Positions 1,469 through 42,000 of a stretch of 64,000 nt of DNA are shown here, piece after piece. The stretch is from assembly GCA_951406725.2 (NCBI GenBank), contig OX597814.1:127844001-127908000 (forward strand). Reading direction: 5' to 3'. The DNA is from Octopus vulgaris (lineage: Eukaryota). The notes under the pieces were generated by a model. That model saw only the letters and a list, made by a program, of their open reading frames with translations, made no database searches and was not told the DNA's origin. The position numbers and the translations under genes were made by a program. The stretch's first letter is position 1. Every line of letters starts with the position of its first letter.

Positions 1469-1600
1469 AGCAATCTACTTATCATCCAAAATTTCTTGTT
1501 ATACCTTCAAAATCTTTGTAATGATCTGCTAAAAGCAACAGCTAGTACCAAACTGCAGATAATTCCCAAAAGATGTTATGATGATATTAAAAAAGTGAAA
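1469..1600 (+). CDS. RNF31: HOIP exon 1 in window (PUB domain, SNLLIIQNF...DIKKVK)
   Basis: ttttttag acceptor, open frame, gtaagt donor at 1601; joins in phase 0 to the PUB exon at 3753. Confidence 0.75.
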
Positions 1601-4600
1601 GTAAGTAGCTTCATTCATTTCTTTCATTTCTAATCAATTTTTTTCTCTAAACTGTCATGGTGGTAGTAGTGGTGGTGGAGGGGTATGTAAGGAAGAATAG
1701 CTAGGCTTGCAAATGCCATAAGTACATCATCATCAACTCTTGGATATTACTGTCTTGAGTTCTAGGACTTATAGGGCCGGTCACCCCAGTTTCCATGGCT
1801 TTTAATTGATCAAGAGTATACTGTCGCCCTCTGAACAGGATGTCAGTTTTTTCTAAAAAAAAAGTGAAATAGTATAGTTACAAAACTGATTGACAAAAAC
1901 AATCAGACTAAATTCCAGCAATAATGGAAACTTCCTCTTACCATCCTATTTTACATTGGCATGCAGAACAGAAATTTGTGCTCTTTGTAACAATGATGAT
2001 GTTGCTGATGATGATGTATTATTAGTTACTACACAAAATGTGATTCAACTACCCATAATATATTCTTACTGGTACTCGAGCCCCGTGCTAGTAGGGTGTT
2101 TAGGAGCACCATCTGAGCGTGATCGTTGCCCGAGCGGCTATCTGGCTTCTGTACTGGTGGCATGTGTAAAAGATTCGAGCGAGGCCGTTGCCAGTACTGC
2201 CTGACTGGCATGTAAAAGCACCCATTACACTCTCAGAGTGGTTGGTGTTAGGAAGAGCATCCAGCTGTAGAAACTCTGCCAGATCAAGATTGAAGCCTCA
2301 GTCAAATCGTCCAACCCATGCTAGCATGGAAAGCGGACGTTAAACAATGATGATGATGAAGAGACAAATCTTACTTGAGAGACAATGCTTACTTGATTCT
2401 TCTACATCAAAGAGTTATATTTATGAAATGCAAAAGGAAAAATGGTGTTATTATTTAAAACTCTAAACAAATATCTAAATCTCTGTAGACAAAGAAAAGA
2501 ATATTGATTTTTGGAGTGATCAGTTTTCTTTTCTTTCTTATACAGTAGATGGCTGGCTGATGCAGCATCCCAATTATCTTACATGGGTTAAGTAAATATT
2601 GACCAGTAAAATAGTTAATCATTGATTTTTGATGGTTGTCATTCATTTATACATTGGCCCTTTAGTATTTAAACTGACCATATTCGGCCCAAATATTCTA
2701 CTTGTTTTATGTTTAAACTATCCAGATCTGGCTGCTCATACCTTTCCCACAATGTCATTCTAAAAATAAACAATGGCATCATCAAACTCTCAAAGCTATG
2801 AAGTAATGCATGATTAATTGAAAACAGCATGAATAAATAAACATTGCATTTGACAGAGTAAAGTGTGTAGATTCGTGAAAATATTTGTGTAGTGCATTTG
2901 TGCATCATTAGATGAAATCTGATCACTTACACTGACAACATATACTAACAAACGGATACATTATATAATGGTCATTTATACATATGGCTGTGGTGTCTAG
3001 TGGTCATCTCCACAGCTATGGTTTGTAGTGGTCATTTTATACACATATACACTATCTATTAAGTCATTACACTCTAGATATGACACATAGCTATGGTATG
3101 TAGTGGTAATTTTACAGGGACACACAGCTATGATGTGTAATGGTTATTTTATATGCTAGATACAGTGCCACAGAGATAAGGTGTGTTGTAGTCATTTTAC
3201 ATACTAGATCCAGTGTAAATACTATGGTGTGTAATAGTCACAGCTATGGTTTGTTGTTGTTTACATACATGCTAGTTGCAGTGACACACACATAGAACTA
3301 CTATGTGCTGTGGTCACTTACATGGAAGATAACAGCCATGTAATGACAGTAATAACAGGCACCGTCTGAATGTGGCAGATGCCAGCGCTGCCTGACTGGC
3401 GTCCGTGTTGGTGACACGTAAAAGCACCAATTGATCGTGGCCATTTGCCAGCCTCCTCTGGCCCCTGTGCTGGTGGCATGTAAAAAACATCCATTACACT
3501 CATGGAGTGGTTGGCGTTAGGAAGGGCATCCAGCTGTAGAAACACTGCCAAACAAGACTGGAGCCTGGTGCAGCCTCCATGGCTTACCCGACCCCTGTCG
3601 AACCGTCCGACCCATGCTAGCCTGGAAAACGGACGTTAAATGATGATGATGATGATTCATCGTTACTTTCTGATTTTAGTCTTTAGTAGTTCTTTATTTT
3701 CTGTTTGTTTCTTTCACTTTTCATGTTTTAAGTTGATTTTCTGTTATTCTAGGGTGCTGATAATATTCTAAAAAAGATTGGATTCACCCCGGATTCTTCC
3801 AACGGAGCTAAAATATCAAAAAGTATGATTGCAGACAAGGCAGCACTCATATCATGGATTATAGATCTTGCTATTGCGCAGTGTGAACTGGTAAATTTCA
3901 TGAAGGACAAGCATCCATATCCTGGCTTTATAAAGAAAGTAAGTGGCAAAGATGTTTGACAGTGGATTGAAGATAGCTTGATAATGAGTGATGGTCATCA
4001 ATGGGATAACATAAAACAACAATTTGAATCATATTATAGGTGTATGTGCGAGAATAGCTGTGTGTCAGGATAATACCTATTTCTTTACTGCCCACAAGGG
4101 GCTATACACAGAGGGGACAGACAAACGGATTAAGTCGATTATATTGACCCCGAAAGGATGAAAGGCAAAGTCAACCTCAGCGGAATTTGAACTCAAAATG
4201 TAACAGCAGACGAAATATGGCTATGCATTTCGCCCGGCATGCTAGCGTTTCTGCCAGCTCGCAGCCTTATTGTCAGGATAATACCACAAAATGATTATGT
4301 GCAGCATATAATTTTGAGGGAGTAGTTCATGATATTGCGACAATTGGGACTATATATACATAAAGAGAATCATTTAACATAACCCCCATGCCCATACGTA
4401 CACATACATACATGATGGCTGCGGCTCAATTTTGAGCAATGTTATCACTTGATTGTTCTCTTAAACATGAGCATCACAGGTATAGCTTTTCAATTCTGCT
4501 AGGGACCTACACTCTTTTGCATAGATGTAGCAGCATTGGGTACTTTTTGTAGCTGGTGTACAGAGAATTACCATCCAAACTGACACATACCTGTATCCCT

Positions 4601-6713: not shown

Positions 6714-9700
6714 CATATATACGACGGGCTTCTTTCAGTTTCCATCTACCAAATCGACTCACAAGGCTTTGGTCAGCCCAAGGCTATAGTAGAAGACACC
6801 CAAGGTGCCATGCAGTGGGACTGAACCTGGAACCATGTGATTTGTAAGCAAGCCAATTACCACACAACCACTCTTACGCCTATATATTTACTTTTAGATA
6901 ATATTTCTACTTAATCTTTTATTTACTGATCTATATTTGTTATAGAGATCTGAAGGTAATTTATGTAAAGGACACAAGGCTTGTGGCATTAAACAAAATA
7001 TTTATATTGTAGAAGATATGCTGTAGGAATATAAATATGTATATATAGGCACAGGGCATGGCTGTCTGGTAAGAAGTTTGCTTCCCAACCACATAATCCT
7101 AGTTTCAGTCTCACTGTGTGGCACCTTGGGCAAGTGTCTCATAGCCTTGAGCCAACCAAAGCCCATCATGTATGTGTGTGTATGTGCACATGTTACTGTC
7201 TCCTTGTCTTGACATCGTGTGATAGTTGTAAATAAATGTAATTATTACCTCACTTAGAAACAGGTGATGGTTGGTGACAAGAAGGGCAACTAGCTGCAAG
7301 AAATCTGCCTCAACAAAATCCTGTCTGACCCATGCAAGCATGGAAAATCATCATCATCACCATCATCCTTTAACATCTGTTTTTCTATGCTGGCATAGGT
7401 TGGATGGTTTGGCAGGAGCTGGCAAGCTGAGAATGCTGTGCCAGGTTCCAGTCTGATTTGGCTTAGTTTCTATGGCTGGATGTCCTTCCTAACACCAACC
7501 ACTTTACAGTTTGTGCTGGGTGCTTTTAATATGTCACTGGCACAAGTGCCTTTTATGTGGCACTGGCATGAGTGATTTTTATGTGAGACTGGCATAGGAC
7601 TCTTGCTGGCCAATTTTCTTCTCCAGGGAATGCTGCCTTAACACTTCTGCTGTACAGCAAGGTGCTAGTCAAAGTGGATGTTAAATTGATGATGATATAT
7701 ATGGGTTTTTGTGTGTGTGTGTTGGTTGCTATCACATCATCATCATCATCATCATCGTTTAGCGTCTGCTTTCCATGCTGGCATGGGTTGGACGGTTCAA
7801 CTGGGGTCTGGGAAGCCAGAAGGCTGCACCAGGCCCAGTCTGATCTGGCAATGTTTCTACGGCTGGATGCCCTTCCTAATGCCAACCACTCCATGAGTGT
7901 AGTGGGTGCTTTTTATGTGCCACAGGCACAGGTGCCAGACGAGGCTGGCAAACGGCCACGATCGGATGGTGCTTTTTACGTGCCACCGGCACGAAGGTCA
8001 GGCGAGGCTGGCAATTTCTATTTTACTTGGTTCTTTTCAAAATCCAGATTTTTATTTACTTGCCAAATAAAATTATTTTATTCCTTTCCAGGATGTAGCA
8101 TCTGTGGACAACCAAAGCCCAATATGATTTGTTCATCATGTGAAGATAAACAATTGTGCACTAGTTGTGATGTTACCTGGCACTCCCATCCAAAGCGTGT
8201 TGAACATATACGTTCTCCAATAAAAGATACTGCTCCACCGAGGTAAATTCTAAATATTTTCATACTGTTTAAAAAGAGAATCTGGTGCTTTGGAAAGAGA
8301 AATTGAAGAGAACATGTTGTGTCTGTTGTTTAGACACTGTAGCTATGAGCTGTATTGAAAATGTGAGGCAGAGGAATCAATTCCTGGTGAACTTGCTGTA
8401 AACAGATTTAACTGCCTAGGAGCAAATGTGGCTGTGTGGGTAAGAAGCTTGCTTCTCAACCATGAAGTTTCAGATGTAGTACCACTGTGTGGTACCTTTG
8501 GCAAGTGCCTTCTATTGTAGCCTTGAGTCAATTAAAACCTTGTGAGTGGATTTAGTTGACTGATTTTATGTCCAATAAGGCTTGCACAATGCCTCACAGA
8601 TCCTCTCCACCCTATTGACCCAATCCAGAGACAAGCCAAAGCAAGATATCCAGTGCCAGTACAGGTTGCAGGTTCAGGAATGTGGGAGAACTATGATCTC
8701 AAGTGCAAGCAAAAGATCTCCAAAATGTTCAATGCCATTCCCCTGCAAATCTGGTTTTATATCAGAGTGACCTTCTCCTAGAGACAAGATTTAACAAAAC
8801 CTGAGGGCTGTCTCACTCTCAGTGGTCTTCCATCATGCCAGACACCAACCTGGAATTTCTGAAGGCCCCATGCTATTGATAGACAGTTATTGAATCTACT
8901 CTAGGTTCATCTATCCTGCTAGGTTTCTAGCCACCCTCCTCACCAGGCAAGCCTAGTGGGCATGCTGGTTCAGTCACTGACAACCTGACCGTGCAACAGG
9001 TTGTACTGGGCTCCATGTTACCAGTAGCACTCATGAGTGACCTCACACACACACATGTATGTGTGTATCCTTGTCTTGATATTGGTTGGGAAGCAAGCTT
9101 CTTAGCCACATGCCCACTCCTGTATGGTTGGAGCAACTCCTTTTACATGTTTGACTGCTTTTGAATGTAAAAGATCTTGTAATTATGTTGTGTCTGGGGA
9201 GAGTCATTTTCTTTTTGTGCCTTATAAAGGTTGCAAGACGCAACGAAAATTTTAGGAAAATGAAAATAAGAAATTAGTGGAAATTTTACCGGTGCGTGTG
9301 TTAAACTATAAGGCACAAAAAGAAAATGACTCTCCCCAGACACAACAGAATATGCTTCAACGCATGAACTCATATAAAGAATCTTGTAAACCAAATCCAA
9401 AAACGATATCTTGTAATTAGATATTGAGAAAATATTTTCTGACTTGTTATTTGTAACAATTTAACATTAATGAAACTATTAACCCAGATAGATTTCTGTT
9501 TTCGTTTCTTTCCTTCAGTTTACTGTCTGGAATTTCAAGTATACATCAATCTGCAGATCCATATATCTCACAGGTAAGTTATTTTTTTCTTTCTAACTCT
9601 AGTTATCTGACATGGACTTAAACTATTCAAGAATCTCTTTATTTTTATATCAACTTTGTTCTTAATTTGTTTCCCATAAAACTGTGGTTATATGTTGTTG

Positions 9701-12700: not shown

Positions 12701-15700
12701 TGTTAAGGAGCCACTCATGTATTGGAAAGTAAATGTATCTTTATATGAACATAGGCGCAGGAGTGACTGTGTGGTAAGTAGCTTGCTTACGAACCACATG
12801 GTTCCGGGTTCATTCCCACTGCGTGGCACCTTGGGCAAGTATCTTCTACTATAGCCTCGGGCCGACCAAAGCCTTGTGAGTGGATTTGGTAGATGGAAAC
12901 TGAAAGAAGCCCGTCGTATATATGTATATATATATGTGTATGTGTGTGTAAATGTTTGTGTGTCTGTGTTTATCCCCTAACATCGCTTGACAACCGATGG
13001 TGGTGTGTTTATGTCCCCGTAACTTAGCGGTTCGGCAAAAACTACCAATAGAATAAGTACAAGGCTTCCAAAGAATAAGTCCTGGAGTCGATTTGCCCGA
13101 CTAAAAGCGGTGCTCCAGCATGGTCGCAGTCAAATGACTGAAACAAGTAAAAGAGTAAAAAAGAGAGTAAGAGTAATAGGTTGCTAAAATGTTTTCTTTG
13201 ATTTCTTGAAGAAATTTTTTTTCACAATTAATGTAGGAAGTTCTACATTATCAGTAAAGTTTGAACTCGAAAAATGTCAAGTAAATGATTTTCTTCTAAA
13301 AATATTACTTGTCTTGTGTTACGGTTCTTTGCAGAATAAATATTTCAATAAACTGTTCTTTCAGAAACAATATCAAGATGCTTTGGATATGGATCCGAAG
13401 AAACTTGAACGTATTTTACAGGACCTGAGTAATACACTCGAGAGTATGGAATGTGATGAAAATTTTAATGCCAAAAAAATTGAATTGGCACGCAAACGCA
13501 CTGTTTTTACGAATGTCTATATAAAGAAAGTTGATAAAGAACTACAAAAATTAAGCCAACATATTGATAATGTGGATCGACACATTCAAACTCTTGTATT
13601 AGATGACCGGGATTTTTATGAACGAGATGAATATGTAGCCCTTACCCAAGACAAACAGTTTATCCAACAAAAAATAACTGAGTATAGGGAAAAACAAAAA
13701 TATTATATGCTTTTACCATACAAGGATGGTAAATTATTTCCCAGTCATGCATTAAGTCAGCAAGAATATGGTTATATGTCTGATTCTCAATTCAATCGAG
13801 ATAACCACAGATGTAAAGATTCTTCAGTAATGCTTTCTTCAAGTTATGGTAATTGGGAAAAATCTCCACTGCATAAACCTCCAATGGTGCTCAGTGATAA
13901 TTATCTTGATTTCCCAGACATAAATTTCTCTGTGCCACCGGAGTCTAGTCAGCTAGATGATCTTGCACAGTTAATAGGAAAATCTCCACAGAAAACATCG
14001 CCTTTAACGACACTTTTCTCAAGTTTTGGTGGCTTGGCTGATGATGATATTGGAATAATTTATTGGAAATGTTCTACATGTGGTCATAAAAATTCTACAG
14101 ACAGGGAAAAATGTTTTAATTGTGACAAGTGGAAAGAATGCAAAACTAGAAAAGACACACCTTCTTTTACTGAAGCAAATGAAAATATGTCTACAACTTT
14201 CCAAACAGTGGCTGCTGAACAAGATCAAGTAAGTGAAACTCTTGTAGGATTTTAATTGCTTTTATGATCTAGAGTAATGTTTATCATGTTCCAATGTTAT
14301 TCGACTTAATCCTGATGTTATGCTAGAGCAGGGGTCACCAAACTTTTTCAACCATCGACCTCCCCTTTAGCCACTTCTTCTGCATCAACCACCCTCCTCA
14401 TTTAAAATATCTTAATACCCTATCCTACTGTACCATGTCTTAAATGTGTACCAGGTACTGATGCTGGCAATTAAAATGTTAGTTAAAATATACATTTTAA
14501 GAAATTCTACTGAAGATGATGCACTTTTTACATTTAAAATTATGTGTTCGGGTATACAGTATTAAACTTTCAACTTTTATGAAATTGTTTTCATGGTTAG
14601 AAAATGTGAAAAACACATCATATTGTTGGAATATCTTTTATTGAAATTGAGACAACATCAATGTGAGGGATGAACATGACGCTGACTAAGTATTTCAAGC
14701 AGTTCATCTGGGTGAGCTGGTGTTTCACACGCTGACCCCCATTCGACCCCCTTGGCTATCATCGACTCCTATATTGGTGTAGATTGAAGAATTTTCCACA
14801 TTAACCTACATATTTTATTAGATGTTGGGATTGTTCTATTAGACTATGTAGATGTAGGCTTATGTATTATACAATTATTATTTCCATCTATTCATTTTCC
14901 TGTTATTTACATAACTAGCAATCATGTTCTACTTAACTAATCCCTTATCTATTGTTTTTAGCATTATCTTCTGATTATTATATAGCGGTTTAGCAGCCAA
15001 GTTTCTCTTATGTTAAATATTATAGCGTATATTTTCTAGTTAGTTTGTTTACAGTTAATGCAATGCTACTTATTATGTTTCCTATTTGGAAATGGATAAA
15101 ATTATTTAGCTTTTAAAGTAGGGATATATAATGATAAAACCGTCACTTATAACTTACTTAAGTGTTATCATTATACGCAAGTCCTAACTACAGCTATATA
15201 AACGCCATAGAGAAATATACTTTCTGGAACGCTAATGAACATTAGGAAGAATGTAGGTTGAATATTATTTTGTGTTCTTTTAACTGCTATAAAAAAATAC
15301 AGTTTAATAATTACAGAAATACATTTTATATATAGTTGAAGAACGTGAAGAAAGAGAAAACATTTTCTACATTAATTTCTATTATATACATATAGCATTT
15401 TTATATTATATACATTTTGAAGAAAAGTAAATTTAGTCATAGAGAATTACGACTATATATTTTAACTATCTATTTCTCATTCTAGCTATATTAAATCTCA
15501 ACAATTCAAACAAGACTTGTTGGATTTTCCTTGGACATGGCATGAAAAATCACCAATGTCTCAAAGGAGTGAGTGTCGTGGGGTTTAGTTACATCTAACA
15601 AACACTGAAGTTTTTCCCAAAATCCAGGGTTTTTATAACTGCTCAACTTGACTTTAAAGAATCGAAATCACATACAAATATTCTTTAACTAATTCTTATG

Positions 15701-17598: not shown

Positions 17599-20500
17599 CA
17601 CACAACGACCTCGAACCCACAAGAGTAAACGAGAGACAGAGAAAGGCAGAAACAAGGAAAATGCCACTTATATTTGAACACTATACAAATATTCTTTTAA
17701 AAAAACTTTTCTTTTAACTTTTCTAAATTTAATTATTCAATTGTTACAGTTGAAAAGGTCTCAATGACTGAAACCGGTACTGAAATGTTCTTTATAAAAT
17801 TATTTTAGCATTTTCTATCCTGGCTTGTTTTTTCATATATATATATATATATATTGTGGTGTCGGTGGAGAGGATGACAGTTGGGGGAGGGCGGAAGTTG
17901 GGCTTGCAGGGCGCATGTGCGGTAGGAAGCGGAAGCGGCGAGGGACGACGCACGTGTGGCATCGACCAAGCAGGAGTTGCAGCTGAGACGAGGAAGGCAC
18001 AAGACGTATCGAGCTGGCTGAGAGAGATCTGAACTTCACGGAGTTTCGGTAGACTAATCTTTGCCGAGGTAAGGCCTACTTGTATTTCCATTCTCCTTTT
18101 TTCTGTTGTCCTCTTCCATCGTTCACACCACAAGCTATTTCGGCATATAAACAATCGGTTTTATAAATAAAAATGATGAAGAGTGCCCATGTTTCGCACG
18201 AACTTATAACACCGTTTAGCGGCGACACAGATGTAGTCGCTTGGTTGAAGAAAGTGAAGTTGGTGGCGAAGCTCCATGGTATAGGTGACCTGGCGAGCTT
18301 CATGCCGCTGTACTTGGATGGTCCGGCTTTGGCGTTGTATCTAGAGATGGAAGAGACAGACCAACTTAACGCGGAGAAAGTGGAAGTCCGGTTGATGGAG
18401 GCCTTTGTGGAGGGAATGTTCGAGGCATACGCTCGCCTGGGTAGAATGAGATGGACTGGGCAACAGGTGGACGTGTTTGCCAATGAACTTAGAAGACTGG
18501 CTAAACTGGCGTGTTACGAGGGAGAGTCGCTGGACCGGATGGTTAGGTTGGCGTTCGTGACTGGCTTTCCCGACAACATGTCGGTCGAGTTACAGAAACT
18601 TCCGAATGTGAATTCGATGCCGATGGCGGACATCATATCTCGGGCACGCGTACTAGTTTCGTGCAGCAGGATGACGTCGGTAGCAGTGACTGCAACGTCG
18701 AAAAGTGGCCCAGCTAGGAGCAGCGGAGAGGGGCTAAAGAAAGAACATGTGCGCCCGTTCAAAGGACAGTGTTTCCGGTGCCAAGGTCCACACATGGTGC
18801 GTGACTGCGTGTCACCCAAGCCTGAGGTGATTTGCCACCGGTGTCGAGAGCCGGGGCATATAGCCAGCGAGTGTCTGTGGGGAAACGGACTGCGGGAGAC
18901 TACTGCGCCGGTAGTTGTCCCTTTGGATCTGTCGGGGCGCGTTTATCATCGCTACCTGTGGTCGACATTCTGGTGAAGGGGAAGATGTCGCGAGCCCTTG
19001 TGGACACGGGCTGTACAACGACCCTGATGACTACAGAAGTGGCAGAGACGTGGAGTGGAGGAAGCAGTGTTAGGGCTGTCGACGGAAGAGAAGTACACTG
19101 CGAAGGGGTTACAGATGCACAGATTGTAGTGCAGGGACTACAGCTGACGTTGCGAGTGATTGTGGTTGGTCACTTGGTGGACGAGATTGACGTGGTGATG
19201 GGGATGGATGCAATCACCCGCTTGGGAGGTGTCACCGTTAACGAGGCTGGTGTAACGTTTGGGTTAGCAGGGAAACCATGTAGGGCGAGACCATGCACCG
19301 GCGACAACCATGAGGAAAAGGATGCTGCACACACCATTGAAGACCAGGATTTTCGGGCTGTCTTTGATGGCAAGAGGTGGACAGTGGAGTGGCACTGGAA
19401 GGGAGAGCCCCCGATGTTAAAGAATAAAGTGGGCTGCTATCAGCATACTCTAAAAGGAGATGTCAGAAGTGAGTTCGAGGGGGAGGTGGAGCGGTGGATT
19501 AAGGAGGGCATATTGATCACTTGGGAAAAAGAAGAGAGCGGAGTCCTGCCACTGATGGCGGTGATACAGCCCACAAAGCATAAGGTGGACGAAACCGTGA
19601 TACCAGCAATGGAGGTCATAGGCCACCTGAAGAGTTTTGGACTGATCGCCAAGCCGCCAGAGGCAATGGAGGGAGGTGCTGCACTGGGCCTCAAGCTATG
19701 GAGAGACAAGGCCGGCGCGTTGGTGTTCCGGCGAGGGAATGAGGTCCCTGAACTGGGCGCCAGCATGAATAGACGGGAACTGTTCTCTGTGTGTGGGAAG
19801 CTGGTGGGACATTACCCGATTGGAGGTTGGCTCCGAACAGCATGTAGCTTCATCAAGAGACGAGCCGAAGGAGTGAAGTGGAATGATAGAGTGGGAGAGA
19901 GGATGATTGACATGATGCAAGAAGTCTTGGTCAGAGTAGGAACAGAGGACCCAGTGAGGGGCAGCTGGTATGTTCCCAAATCAAAGAGCGGGATCGTATG
20001 GTGTGACGCCAGTAGCATTGCAATAGGGGTTGTCTTAGAAGTGGGAGGTGTCATGGTGGAAGATGCAGCCTGGCTCAGGAAGACGGATGACTGCAATCAT
20101 ATCAACGTGGCAGAGTTGGATGCCGTGTTGAAGGGGGTGAACCTAGCCTTGAAGTGGGGGTTGCACACCATAGAAATCAGGACTGATTTGGCCACTGTAC
20201 TTGGTTGGGCGACAGCAGTCATCACCGATGAGCGGAGGGTGCGGACCAAAGGGGCTGCAGAGATGCTGGTAAAGCGTCGATTGGGAATACTGCGTGAACT
20301 AACCACTGAGTTCAATCTGAAGCTGAGCGTGATCTTTGTGCCTTCCGAGAAGAACAGGGCAGACGTCCTGACCAGGGTAAAGCGAGCCTGGTTGCAGGTG
20401 CCAGAGGATGTGAAGCAGGCTGTAGCTGCAGTATGCCGTCTGAGCGACTCGGAGTTGCGGAGACTGCACACCATGCATCACATGGGTGTGGACAGGACAT

Positions 20501-21805
20501 TGTTCCTAGCCAGAAAAGTTGACTCCGACGTAACAAGACAGAGCGTGCAGAGAGTGGTTAGCAGTTGTGACAGGTGCCAGTCCATCGATCCTGCTCCAGT
20601 CGTACATGAAGCGGGAAGTATTCCAGTGGACCAGGACTGGAAACGACTGGCGGTGGACATAACACACTACCGGCAGGGGACATACCTCTCAATGGTTGAC
20701 TGCGGACCGGGGCGGTTGGCCATATGGAGGGAGATGAAGACGGGGACCGCAGAAGAAATTGTGAAAGTGTTGAATGAGATATTCCTGGAACGAGGCCCCG
20801 TGGATGAACTGCTTCTGGACAATGGCACTGCATTTCACTCGGATGTGCTGAAAGAAATGCTTGATGAGTGGAAGGTCAACCGCTTCTTCAGGGCGGCATA
20901 CCGGCCAAGTGGAAATGGGGTGGTGGAAAGGCATCATCGTACCATCAAGGCCAAGGCAGAGAGGGGTCACATTTCACCAATCGAGGCCGTGTTTTGGTAC
21001 AATATGTCGCCCAGATCAGGACAGGCTGAGGAGTCGGTGCCACACAGGGCAATATTCAGGTACGAGTGGAGGCATCCGTGTACTACATCAATGCGATCCG
21101 GGGCAGAGGAAGAGCACGCCTTCGTGCAGGTCGGGGAGGAAGTCTGGGTAAAACCCTCAAATGCACGGTGTACATCACAATGGGGAAAGGGGACAATAAC
21201 ATCTGTAAATTCAAAGAATAACATCTCGGTCGATGGTATGCCACGTCACGTTTTGGATATACGGAGGGTTGTCCATGCCTCAGAGGATGGGACCAGCAGC
21301 AGTGGGCAAGATGAAAACAACACCAGTAGACAGGATGATGAGGCCAGCAGCAACATACCAGGAACAAGTTCTAGGGTTGCACTGCGACCACAGAGGGAAC
21401 GGCACCCTCCTCCCTGGTTGGCTGATTATGAAACCAGTTAAGGTGCGGGAGCAGAGAGCGAGTGAGAAAGCCGGTTCAGTGATCTGTAGATCAGGGGGGG
21501 GCGTGTGGTGTCGGTGGAGAGGATGACAGATGGGGGAGGGCGGAAGTAGGGCTTGCAGGGCGCATGCGCGGTAGGAAGCGGAAGCAGCGAGGGACAACGC
21601 ACGTGTGGCATCGACCAAGCAGGAGTTGCAGCTGAGACGAAGGCACAAGACGTATCAAGCTGGCTGAGAGAGATCTGAACTTCGCTGAGTTTCGGTAGAC
21701 TAATCTTTGCCGAGATAAGGCCTAATTGTATTTCCATTCTCCTTTTTTCTGTTGTCCTCTTTCATCATTCACACCACATATATATATATATAAATTATAA
21801 CTGTA

Positions 21806-21844
<39 letters not shown>

Positions 21845-24800
21845 AATTATAACTGTAAAACTGTCATCTATGTTTGACTTTTATGTGTCTCCTTATCAGC
21901 TTGCTGAACAACAAGGGATTGATGTTGATACAATGGTGATAGCACTTGAGAACGTAGATGAATCAGTTACTCCAATGGAATGGATCCAGACCCAGTGGCC
22001 AGATTATATCACAACTGCTACAGTCTTGATTGTTAACCGAATTGGAGTCCAGTTTCATAAAGAAGACGTAACCTGTGCCTTGAAGAAGCATAAAGGCAAT
22101 GTAGAAAAAGCTGTCGAAGAATGTACTCATTCTTATCAAAAAAAGGTAACTTCACTAAAATGTTTTCTTCATGTGGTATAACATAATTGACAATTCATTC
22201 AATCAAATTCGATGACTGGCATCTGTGTTAGCTGGGTGCAAAGGGCGCCATACGAGTGTGATTGTTGACAGAGCAGCTAACCGACTTCCGTGCCAGTGGC
22301 ACATAAAAGGCACCATTCGAGTGTGATCATTACCAGCATCGCCTTACTGGCACTCGAACCCTGTGCTAGTAGGGTGCTAAGAGCACCATCTGAGCGTGAT
22401 CGTTGCCAGAGCAGCTAACTGGCTTCCGTGCCGGTGGCACATAAAAGGCACCTTTCGAGTGTGATCGTTACCAGCATCACCTCACTGGCACCTGTGCCGG
22501 TGGCATGTGTAAAAAGATTTGAGCGAGGTCATTGCCAGTACCGCCTGACCGCCCCCCGTGCCGGTGGCACGTAAAAGCACCCACTACACTTTTGGAGTGG
22601 TTGGCGTTAGGAAGGGCACCAGCTGTAGAAACTCTGCCAGATCAAGATTGGAGCCTGGTGCAGTCATCTGGTTTGCCAGCCCTCAGTCAAATCGTCCAAC
22701 CCATGCTGTCATAGAAAGCAGATGTTAAACGATGATGATGATGATATTACACAACACTGTTATGTACCTAGAATTTATTGTAGACAGCATTGTTATGCAA
22801 CCAACAATTCAGTTATGTTACATAACCTTATAATGCAATCCACAACCTGTTCATGTTGCACAATATTGTTATACAACTAACAATCCATTTTTGTTGCACA
22901 ACATTGTCACATGCATAATCATACTTCCTATTCCTACTCTAATATTCTTATGATGTCTTGCACTTTTTAACTCAAGCAAGCACAAACTGCTGCTACATTA
23001 GTAAAACTAGCCATATCCTTAAATAATATTACATATATTTTATCAACTGTAGTTATGTCTGTTACTAAGTGGTGTATCTAGCAGTAAGTGATTGTGTCTA
23101 ACACTGATTGACTGACATGTCAGGCAGTTATGCCCGCTACTCATGGCTTTGTTTGTTAAATGCTAATACCACGTAATTGTATCTATGTTCTTGTTCTGTC
23201 ACTGGGTGACTGTGTGTGTTACTGGATGACTTCTGTCACTGGGTCTCAGTGTCTTATTGCATGACTGTTTATTGGTGGATGACTGTCTGTTACTGCGTGA
23301 CTATGCCAACAACAGACTGTGACAATAGGTTACTGTGTCTGATGATAGCTGACTGTCTGTGGTCAATGGTATTTGCCAGCAGGTGATTGTCTGTCTGTCT
23401 TTGTGGCACAATGTTTGTCTGTGGGTTACTATCAGTGAGTGACTGAGTGACTCACTAGTTGATTGTGTCTGTCATAGAATGATAATTCTTGTACCTGTTA
23501 TAGTTATTGAAACTATGTCTTGGGAGTATACTAATTTTTTTTTTTTATTATATTCACTTATATGTATTTTTTGTTTTTTCAGCTTAGAAAGTCGCAAGAA
23601 TTTGGCAATTTCTCTGAAGAAGATTTCAAACAAGCTTTTCAGAAACATAGTGGAGATGTTGATCTAATACTCCAAGAGTTATTTACACCTAGTTTAGATG
23701 AATATGAGAAAAGAATTTGGGCTATAAATGAGCCTCTCAATCGTTCGTTATCAGCTGACTTAATTAACCTTTTAAAAGACAATCAAGTAGATGTCCAAGT
23801 AAGTTCTGCAACAATTCCATCAATTACTTATTTCGTCTAGATATCCATTTTTAACAGAAGATTACATTACATTATTAATCTAATTATATTGTAGCCTTTT
23901 CTGACTTTACATGATGTAGTGGTAATACCTATTTCTTTACTACCCACAAGGGGCTAAACACAGAGAAGACAAACAAGGACAGACAAACAGATTAAGTCAA
24001 TTATATCGACCCCAGTGCATAACTGGTACTTATTTAATCGACCCTGAAAGAATGAAAAGCAAAGTCGACCTTTTGAACTCAGAACGTAGCGGCAGACGAA
24101 ATACCGCTAAGCATTTTGCCTGGTGTGCTAATGTTTCTGCCAGCTCACTACCTTTGTGGTGGTGATACCACTGACTGGGGAGTGATGTTAGTGATTTGGG
24201 TCAAAGTGTCATTGATTGGGTGGTGATGTCACTGAGTAGGGTCAAGATGTCACTTAGTGTCTAAGGTAGGATAGGCACTCAGTAGAATCAGGATTTCATT
24301 GGAAGGAAGTGGGTGATGTCTCTTAGTGAGGTGAAGATGCTATTTAGTCTGAATTGTTGTTTCATTGTAGAATTCTCTGCAACTACTTTGGAAATTGTTT
24401 TATTTCCTCAACATCCCTTATTTTATTTGACTTTGAAAGAAGTACACTTGATTCTACTATTTCAAAGATTTACTATTCACCCCATCCCACACACATTAAT
24501 GTATCCACTTTCTGTTATTTTCAACAGCATGTAGAATTGATATCAACTGGTATTTATAACTTCAAAGAACTGACAAAATTATTTTTAAAACTAGGTCATT
24601 GACAAGATTTGAGTGTATTTTCATTTAATAAACTAGTAAGGTAAAAGTGCATCAAGTATTGATTGATAAGGGTAGTTATAACATGTCAATTGAGTATCTA
24701 TGTCTCCTCCAGGTTTAGTATATGTGGAAGTATGTAAGATATTTTCACTCATAGTATGTGTGTGTGTGTGTGTGCGTGTGTCTATATTTTACCAGGCACC

Positions 24801-39000: not shown

Positions 39001-42000
39001 TCATTGATAGAAACTGGTTATATACATCTGTTTATTATGTACACTGTGTATATTAGTTAGGCTGGTGTCCCTCATCTTGATTCTTGCTGTGACTATGTTT
39101 CAGCTGTTGTATGCTTCAGCCTTCTTCAGGTGTCTTGTGATCCACCTTAGAACTTTGCTTGGGATTGGACTCAAAACTAGCCAACACTTTTTATCCTCTA
39201 CACCAGTGGTTCCCAAAGTGGGTGGCATTGCTCCCCTGGGGACGGTGGAAAGATCCGGGGGGGGGGGGGCTTTGAAGAAAAATGGGGCGATAATGGGGTA
39301 ACCAAAATGGGGCAATGGATGCAAAACAAATAAAATAAAGGGTTAATTAGGTCAAGTTTTATTTGTGACATACTGTTGTATTGAACTTGCTGCAGAAAAT
39401 GGTCTATGTCTGTGATGGTAAGTGGAGCGAGGGGTACTAGGAATGTGGCCTTAGAACCAAGAGGGTGGCAGCCTGAAAAAGTTTGGGAATCACTGCTCTA
39501 CACTATACCCATAGATAGAGCAAATTTTTTAAAGCTTATAAAACTCTATTGATGTCTTGTGTTGGCTCCGTACCAATTGGGTAATAAATACAGAATTGTA
39601 TATATGTGTTTGTATTGTTTGAGTTTGTATTTCTATCATCTACATGTGTATTTTGTTTGCTGATTGTAAACAGGCGCAGGAGTGGCTGTGTGGTAAGTAG
39701 CTTGCTTACTAACCACATGGTTCGTGGTTCAGTCCCACTGTGTGGCACCTTGGGCAAGTGTCTTCTACTATAGCCTTGGGCCGACCAAAGCCTTGTGAGT
39801 GGATTTGGTAGACGGAAACTGAAAGAAGCCTGTCGTATATATGTATATGTATATATATGTGTGTGTGTCTGTGTTTGTCCCCTCTTCCCTCCAACATCGC
39901 TTGACAACCGATGCTTGTGTGTTTACATCCCCGTAACTTAGCGGTTCGGCAAAAAGAGACCGATAGAATAAGTACTAGGCTTACAGAGAATAAGTCCTGG
40001 GGTCGATTTCCTCGACTAAAGGTGGTGCTCCAGCATGGCTGCAGTCAAATGACTGAAACAAGTAAAAGAGTAATGGTTTTTCTAATAGTGTTGTTTGCTT
40101 TCAGTCCATCTCGAAAGTATGTCGGGGCTTTTTGATATGTCTTGACATGTTGCATGGTCTTTGTAAACAAAAGGCTCATCTATGAAGAGAGTGCAGGTTT
40201 GTTGTGATGTATATGTATTGTGTGCAGACAGTTAGGGAAGAGTGGAAAGAGGTATTGTTTGCATAGGAATTGGCATTTGTTACAAGTGACAACAGGTAGA
40301 TAGTGAATGTGCTGGAAAAGATTTGGTGGGGAACATAACTGAAACATGGGATGCTCAAGAGTTGGTAGAATGAGGGTTTTACTCAGCAAAGTATTCATCA
40401 CTCTGAGGCTATAGAAGATACTTTTTCAAGGTGTCATTCAGTAGAATATGAATATATATCCTCATCATCATCATCGTTTAGTGTCCACTTTCCATGCTAG
40501 CATGGTTTGGACGGTTCAACTGGGGTCTGGGAAGCCAGAAGGCTGCACCAGGCCCAGTCTGATCTGGCAATGTTTCTACGGCTGAATGCCCTTCCTAATG
40601 CCAACCACTCTGTGAGTGTAGTGGGTGCTTTTTATGTGCCAGGCGAGGCTGGCAAACAGCTACGATCGGATGGTGCTTTTTATGTGCCACTGGCACGAGG
40701 CCAGTTGGATCGGTGCTGGCAACGGCCACGTTCGGTTCTTTTACGTACCACCGGCACTGTTACCACAGCTGCAATTTCCATTGATGTTGATCGATTTTGA
40801 TTTTGATTTTGGATTTTCACTTGCCTCAACAGGTCTTCACTAGTAGAGTTTTGTGTCCCAAGAAGAAAAGGTATACATAAGTGGACTGGCTACATCCCAT
40901 GTAGAGGCCACGGGTTATGATCTCACTTGTCCTGCCAGGTCTTCTCACGTACAGCATACTTCCAAAGATCTCGGTCTCTAGTTATTTCCTCGGTGAGACC
41001 TAAAGTTTGAAGGTTGTGTTTCACCACCTCGTCCCAGGTTTTCCTGGGTCTGCCTCTTCCACAGGTTCCCTCAACCGCTAGGGTGTGGAACTTTTTCACA
41101 CAACTATCTTCATCCATTCTCGCCACATGACCATGTCAGCGCAAACGTCTCTCTTGCACACCACAACTGATGCTTCTTAGGTCCAACTTTTCTCTCAAGG
41201 TACTTACACTCTGTCGAGTATGAACACTGACATTACACATCCATCGGAGCATACTGGCTTCATTTCTTGCGAGCTTATGCATATCCTCAGCAGTCACAGC
41301 CCATGTTTCACTGCCATGTAGCATGGCTGTTCGTACATATGCGTCATACAGTCTGCCTTTTACTCTGAGTGAGAGGCCTTTTGTCACCAGCAGAGGTAAG
41401 AGCTCTCTGAACTTTGCCCAAGCTATTCTTACTCTAGCAGTTACACTTTCAGCACACCCGCTCCTGCTACTGACTTGGTCACCTAGGTAACGGAAGCTAT
41501 CAACTATTTCTTTTTTTTCTCCCTGGAATGTGGCAGAAGTTGGTCTCAGAGCATTTTCAGTGTTTATTGCTCCTGAGCATCTGCCACATACAAAAACTAT
41601 CTTCCTAGTTAGCCTTCCTTTGACATTGCTGCACCTCTTATGTGTCCATAGCTTACACTTGGTGCATCTTATAGAGTTTCTGCCTACGCCTTTTCTGCAG
41701 ATCGAGCAGGGCCATCTACCTGAAGGCATTTGTGATTTGTCTACCTTTCTACTTATTAGGACTTTGGTTTTAGCCAGATTGACCCTAAGGCCCTTTGATT
41801 CTAATCCTTGCTTCCACACCTGAAACTTTTCCTCCAGTTCTGATAGTGACTCAGCAATTAGAGCAAAGTCATCAACATAGAAGAGCTCCCAGGGGCATCC
41901 TGTCTTGAATTCCTCTGTTATTGCTTGGAGGACTATGATAAATAGGAGGGGGCTGAGGACTGAGCCTTGGTGGACCCCAACCTCTACCCGGAATTCTTCA

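Follow-up and report, generated by a model that had tools for sequence, protein, structure and literature searches.

A conserved 12-nt site complementary to the 5' end of tRNA-Phe adjoins the 5' LTR in a Gypsy-like retrotransposon family of Octopus vulgaris and may bind a tRNA 5' fragment as primer

In copia and Ty5, minus-strand DNA synthesis is primed by a half-tRNA-iMet of about 40 nt, with a primer-binding site that corresponds to the anticodon arm; Kikuchi 1986 is said to be the reference for this half-tRNA priming in copia. In Tf1 the RNase H of the element's reverse transcriptase (RT) cuts an RNA duplex and thereby frees an 11-nt primer. Cigr-1, a Gypsy element with which the family described here shares several traits, is 4.2 kb long and has short LTRs. 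In the parts of the literature considered here, three modes of priming are distinguished for LTR elements, namely 3'-CCA priming, cut-tRNA priming and self-priming (PMC7472051; PMC7773854; PMC5445492). The relevant section of PMC5445492 also reports an internal tRNA-Lys site for the fungal Copia element FunCo1 and states that self-priming in Tf1 and Tf2 of Schizosaccharomyces pombe and in the sushi group requires complementarity to the transcript start. The small Cigr-1 clade was described from Ciona and is also present in Octopus bimaculoides, Biomphalaria and squids (PMC6238403), and the main text of that article makes no mention of a primer-binding site. As far as its methods are given in the part considered, one survey restricts the test for such sites to the last 12 nt of tRNAs (PMC13524379); a survey of tRNA 3' ends only would score the elements presented below as lacking a site.

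The element in question occupies positions 17855-21778 on the forward strand of the window, that is the whole 64,000-nt stretch of Octopus vulgaris DNA that was analysed, and is the only such element reported here for it. Its 5' LTR of 278 nt, bounded by TG and CA (17855..18132), was delimited by self-BLAST against the 3' LTR at 21504-21778, with which it shares 94.6% identity (12 substitutions over 275 aligned bases), and a probable 5-bp target-site duplication lies within (TA)n on either side (left copy 17850..17854, right copy 21779-21783). Between the LTRs, all on the forward strand, are found a gag frame of 269 residues from stop to stop with zinc knuckles (18167..18976), a pol frame that overlaps gag in the -1 frame and has the order protease (PR), RT, RNase H (RH), integrase (IN) (18826..21441), and, immediately before the 3' LTR, a G run resembling a polypurine tract (21488..21503), the position of which matches that in sister copies and in the relatives L064 and L066. 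Where gag and pol overlap, a slippery-type heptamer, GGGAAAC, is located at 18880-18886; Q-G-N is encoded there in many relatives, and in some relatives gag and pol share one frame. Compared with a natural sister copy, pol in the window lacks, near 19588, about 120 RT residues, the YxDD motif among them, and this copy is therefore non-autonomous. The element sits between exons (13188-14255 and 21900-22145) of a gene, probably RNF31/HOIP, whose product has a zinc finger of the RanBP type (E 1.5e-4) as well as a HOIP UBA domain (E 2e-10). Interspersed repeats from several abundant families, 120-340 nt long (for example 12746-12959, 39665-39878, 7727-7951 and 40446-40670), and many microsatellites are also present in the window.

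Directly 3' of the terminal CA of the 5' LTR lies the predicted primer-binding site, AGCTATTTCGGC (18133..18144), which occurs only once within the window; the 3' LTR is followed by host (TA)n without the site. The window sequence from 18128 to 18200 contains no TGG, which bears out the first-pass annotation in its description of a 12-mer next to the LTR terminus without this trinucleotide. The complementarity to the 5' end of tRNA-Phe(GAA), which the annotation had given for metazoans and described as ending at nt 1, is confirmed by the Octopus genes themselves: AGCTATTTCGGC is the exact 12/12 complement of nt 1-12 of Octopus vulgaris tRNA-Phe(GAA), this tRNA was called by ARAGORN at all 12 fetched loci, and the genes begin at the first G of the complement. 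A 15-nt pattern beginning with the complement of the site has at least 94 matches in the Octopus genome versus none for the reversed control; about 45 such matches form a tandem array with 200-bp spacing at G000:C18:30147732-30157146. When the site was aligned to a partial set of 12 Octopus tRNA types, tRNA-iMet not among them, the longest match was to tRNA-Phe with 12 nt from position 1, and all other types matched over at most 6 nt. The chance that a fixed 12-mer matches any 12-nt window in some 50 tRNAs is about 2e-4, and that it matches any tRNA 5' end about 3e-6. The tRNA-Phe gene is preceded by A in 16 of 16 gene matches and the base following the site, column 13, is T in just 12 of the 71 distinct contexts described below, so the match does not reach into the pre-tRNA leader. 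Pairing with this leader was rejected, since its base is unmatched at column 13.

The family to which the element belongs is large, with 1852 first-look integrase candidates in the genome, 150 of which were scored. Young copies of 4.2 kb have LTRs that are 98-100% identical and an open pol of about 980-1000 residues, and they encode gag and pol alone, without env; 5-bp target duplications were present at 13 of 14 sister elements. Twenty elements spanning 70-94% integrase identity were fetched, of which 15 had a full LTR pair and five had none. The exact 12-mer stands at the LTR end in 14 of these 15, and the remaining one has a single mismatch; this holds over strongly differing LTR types. Intact copies were also searched for an ordinary TGG site, and those with two LTRs and open pol carry the 12-mer instead. 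Among the 30 copies closest to the window element, 24 have an exact site, five have one mismatch and one has two. So as not to select on the site, 90 of 150 loci retrieved with a distant gag were taken, by gag likeness alone (the best 30 and 60 picked from the remainder, the window copy and some duplicates included). Here, 69 sites were exact, 14 had one mismatch and six had two, a single locus being without the site, which means that the 12-mer is kept within two mismatches at 89 of 90 loci. In the 71 distinct contexts represented by these 89 positive loci, columns 1-12 are constant at 93-100% and the last three bases of the LTR at 97-100%; constancy at column 13 is 45%, with all four bases occurring. 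The 12-mer preceded by ACA has 279 exact matches in the genome versus three for the reversed control. Forty further matches of this kind were inspected: 33 have gag downstream, the other seven are LTRs whose interior is deleted, inverted or decayed, and none of the 40 is a 3' LTR with an attached site. The 12-mer is a real and conserved feature and, as judged from sequence, very likely a functional one.

Several derivatives were encountered among these loci. In L274, L295 and L296 (near base 600, counted from the LTR side), only 8-60 nt separate the LTR and site from an inverted LTR copy; these structures result from fold-back during reverse transcription or integration. L284, L294 and L310 are very short derivatives in which a single LTR with the site is followed by a few bases of leader and then by no more than the terminal bases of a second LTR; two of them have a clear 5-bp duplication.

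Named pol relatives come from Octopus, Argonauta, Acanthosepion, Aplysia and Plakobranchus and further from Petrolisthes, Portunus, Penaeus, Oratosquilla, Amphibalanus, Trinorchestia and Nymphon. For three relatives, L064, L065 and L066, DNA including the 5' end was at hand. The metagenome relatives L064 (gag 42%) and L065 (gag 36%) carry the same 12-mer after CA in unrelated LTRs, the LTR border being set by the position of CA and not by a full second LTR. L066 (pol 39%, gag and pol frames open) has AGCTATCCGGGC in the same register, which amounts to three neighbouring changes relative to the Phe-type site; its LTR ends with TAAA rather than CA, and the border was placed by position without a second LTR. 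AGCTATCCGGGC complements nt 1-12 both of human tRNA-Lys3, in the sequence given by PMC8715211, and of one Octopus tRNA-Lys(CTT) gene; the comparison is thus with human and Octopus tRNA-Lys and not with that of the element's own host, and L066 is the sole element behind the switch to Lys. Of the two outcomes that the first-pass annotation had named for relatives, an invariant 12-mer or one that covaries with tRNA 5' ends, identity stands for L064 and L065 and a fit to human and Octopus tRNA-Lys nt 1-12 for L066. In the Octopus genome the Lys-type site gave five matches versus nine for the control, none with gag, and searches of this genome with two distant gag proteins led back to the same family.

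L066 resides in G001, a bacterial assembly with at least six eukaryotic retroelement contigs (C363, C154, C196, C371, C114 and C79, corresponding to L066, L067, L198, L199, L194 and L196). The eukaryotic contigs in G001 are contamination; among 85 prokaryote genomes of its family such contigs occur in G001 alone. Two other clade members in this assembly, L067 and L198, lack the 5' end, a search of the assembly for the eukaryote's tRNAs gave matches at control level, and an unrelated Gypsy element in it, L272, has an ordinary TGG site. Pol and gag patterns retrieved no relatives from viral contigs, where one weak match is not an element and none of 58 pattern matches has gag; plasmid and phage collections contained no match to the family, and the ESM Atlas returned unnamed clusters only.

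Further sites can be read from proteins, as gag is in places extended N-terminally through the site. Peptides that fit CA+AGCTA+7 nt in one of three frames are present in 35 of 54 such extensions, versus a mean of 0.5 in 2000 shuffles, for a pattern that was written after inspection of the data, and four more site-type peptides occur among 26 gag-pol proteins. Of the 34 peptides tabulated after removal of near-duplicates and addition of two by eye, 19 agree with the Octopus Phe 12-mer and 11 with different 12-mers opposite GCCnnnnTAGCT; four fit none starting GCC. The variant sites mostly alter only the letters opposite tRNA nt 4-7, which is presumably what differing tRNA acceptor stems would lead to. 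In a gag tree of 40 rows the variant sites fall into one branch of 12 rows (support 88/75, not starred) and L066 groups among Phe-type rows; the support in this tree does not suffice for counting switches.

Self-priming as in Tf1, in which the start of the element's own transcript would pair with the site and be cut and the likeness to a tRNA would be a leftover or a coincidence, has to be weighed against this pattern of conservation. The length of the site is close to the 11 nt of the Tf1 primer, and a U5 stretch at 18062..18071 can pair with it over 10 bp including two G-U pairs. This stretch is confined to the sub-lineage of the window element, is absent in other lineages and is equalled by 11% of 300 shuffles. 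In 12 of 12 LTRs, two of which (L064 and L066) are possibly incomplete, the best own partner does not outperform shuffles (fractions 0.11-0.85), and its position differs between elements. For the 11 Phe-type elements, pairing with tRNA-Phe is calculated at -18.8 kcal/mol versus -7.7 to -12.6 kcal/mol for own partners. A self-priming site would moreover be expected to drift with the LTR, yet the site is fixed while the LTRs change. We therefore regard this explanation as highly improbable.

The region upstream of the site bears a second alternative, namely that the site is conserved for protein binding, packaging or splicing and matches tRNA 5' ends by chance. A splice-donor-like GTAAG is present in U5 (18069..18074, a loose motif match), a pyrimidine tract lies upstream of the site, and the first two bases of the site are AG. 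The loose donor motif is found in 83 of 95 distinct U5 100-mers versus 39 of 95 in the next 100 nt upstream, and it is present in most lineages including L064 and L065. The distance from donor to AG, however, is about 22-49 nt in L065, L299 and L064, which is short for an intron, and contigs of four sequencing runs that cover the element contain no spliced form or joint at the U5 donor, a weak negative. A signal of this kind would also leave the LTR edge with no other primer site and would have to match 12/12 with borders exactly at tRNA nt 1 and 12, so that it appears very unlikely.

The enzymes predicted to act at the site are divergent. The RNase H residues D, E, D, D and the aspartates of the RT motif YxDD are invariant in 48 of 48 relatives. 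A confident structure prediction yields a compact RT-RNase H (pLDDT 88, pTM 0.81), the modelled fold of which resembles the RTs of HIV-1 and caulimovirus at 14-18% identity; by sequence the closest solved RT is that of MLV (E about 1e-3), and the best match among solved integrases is retroviral (E 6e-18). The RT of the element L043 scores under the Pfam RVT_1 cut-off, and RNase H matches RVT_3/RNase_H and not RT_RNaseH, the typical Gypsy profile. DUF7047 is present in 26 of 26 pol proteins. In L043, where pol spans 1549-4533, it is placed between the RT palm and RNase H and is helical in the model; it is probably the thumb region of this clade. Ty3/Gypsy-like traits, that is direct TG...CA LTRs, a short target duplication, the order PR-RT-RNase H-IN and no env, are all present, and by sequence criteria the anatomy is Gypsy-like while RT and RNase H are divergent. 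No TGG-starting site adjoins the 5' LTR as in canonical 3'-end priming; the match is to tRNA-Phe nt 1-12 and not to the anticodon arm, and IN follows RT, neither of which fits copia and Ty5; and, as scored on LTR sequence and not on mapped transcript starts, 12 LTRs contain no perfect complement of the site of the kind typical of Tf1 and sushi. The element fails the defining site tests of the 3'-CCA, cut-tRNA and self-priming groups.

It is from the position of the site, its complementarity and sharp borders, its conservation across lineages and the intact RNase H motifs that we infer the primer itself. We consider it likely that the 5' end of the tRNA pairs at the site, is cut or trimmed near nt 12 and primes minus-strand DNA. 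Gag would open the tRNA, allowing the 5' strand of the acceptor stem and the first bases of the D-stem to pair with the site. Because the base next to CA faces tRNA nt 12, priming into U5 requires a 3'-OH at this nucleotide or close to it; nt 13 lies within the D-stem and is unable to pair with the LTR end, so that cutting or trimming of the tRNA is needed. The 3'-OH would be made where the duplex ends. The simplest agent would be the element's RNase H, acting on the RNA duplex in a Tf1-like manner; alternatively, a host nuclease would trim back a longer fragment from the tRNA 5' end. RT would then extend the primer into U5. The primer may end at nt 12, giving blunt cDNA, or at nt 10, giving a 2-nt overhang. 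As its other end would be tRNA nt 1, the site would not reach beyond this nucleotide. Somewhat more than half of the confidence placed in priming by the tRNA 5' end goes to the version in which the element's own RNase H makes the primer. Nucleotide 9 is A in every fitted primer, which would avoid the block to pairing that m1G9 imposes. No conserved additional pairing with nt 13-76 of tRNA-Phe was detected (two of 12 elements below 5% of shuffles), so nothing here points to the means by which the D-stem would open or the cut would be guided.

The geometry of this duplex also bears on a third alternative, in which the tRNA 5' end is an anchor only and priming is achieved by the freed 3' CCA of the same tRNA elsewhere, or by another RNA ending in this sequence such as the transcript of a tRNA-derived repeat. 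Given the tRNA fold, strand invasion of the acceptor stem would indeed free the 3' strand; a two-part site is known for Ty3, most LTRs begin with TGTGG, and 9 bp including wobble could form between the start of the window LTR and the tRNA 3' end. This pairing falls to 3-6 bp in other lineages, L066 begins with TGTGTT, and TGG is absent near the U5 edge. Rebuilding of the LTR, in addition, needs a start at the U5 edge, to which only the nt-12 end of the duplex points. A role as an anchor only is accordingly considered unlikely. With priming by the tRNA 5' end as the preferred reading, a wider proposal can be put forward, albeit tentatively and at somewhat less than even chances: an old and widespread lineage of compact LTR elements marked by DUF7047, comprising elements of cephalopods, gastropods, crustaceans, sea spiders and more, might prime throughout from tRNA nt 1-12, switching between tRNA species and host isoforms within this register, with its own RNase H making the primer. 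This would be a counterpart of Tf1 self-priming that acts in trans and is fed by tRNA, a further means of starting reverse transcription that the 3' tRNA fragments known to block ordinary primer sites would not affect.

The first-pass annotation knew of no described family with this priming mode, and the open literature, searched by titles and starts of abstracts, with Repbase, GyDB, subscription journals and most supplements outside the search, yielded no report of such a site in a retrotransposon; the parts considered of PMC2774666, PMC5633606 and PMC7515703 contain nothing further on the topic. By its sequence features this is likely a use of cut-tRNA primers in a new register, for which an earlier mention is possible. 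If true, another priming mode of LTR elements would join the cut-tRNA priming of copia and Ty5 with the self-priming of Tf1. Competition at these sites would be predicted to come from 5' and not from 3' tRNA fragments, and annotation tools limited to tRNA 3' ends would overlook the site across the whole clade. A 12-bp RNA duplex and a compact RT-RNase H provide a short, defined substrate on which the making of a primer from a folded tRNA can be tested.

Compared with the known systems, the family described here shares with copia, Ty5 and FunCo1 a putative primer that is the 5' part of a tRNA and acquires its 3'-OH by a cut, as well as the lack of TGG at the LTR edge; it differs from these Copia elements in that the site corresponds to nt 1-12, the whole primer would be base-paired, the tRNA in question would be that for Phe (or Lys) and the domains are ordered PR-RT-RH-IN. 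As in Tf1 and Tf2, a short RNA 5' end (11 nt in Tf1, 12 nt here) would pair at the LTR edge and would need to be cut, whereas, unlike in Tf1 and sushi, the partner would be a host tRNA acting in trans, there is no matching LTR segment and a chromodomain was not found. With Cigr-1, compared by description only, it has in common the size, the short LTRs and the presence in cephalopods and gastropods. TG...CA LTRs, a zinc-knuckle gag, an overlapping pol with PR-RT-RH-IN, a polypurine tract and a 5-bp duplication are shared with Ty3/Gypsy elements (Metaviridae) and retroviruses, from both of which the family is set apart by a site without TGG, a divergent RT and RNase H and the presence of DUF7047.
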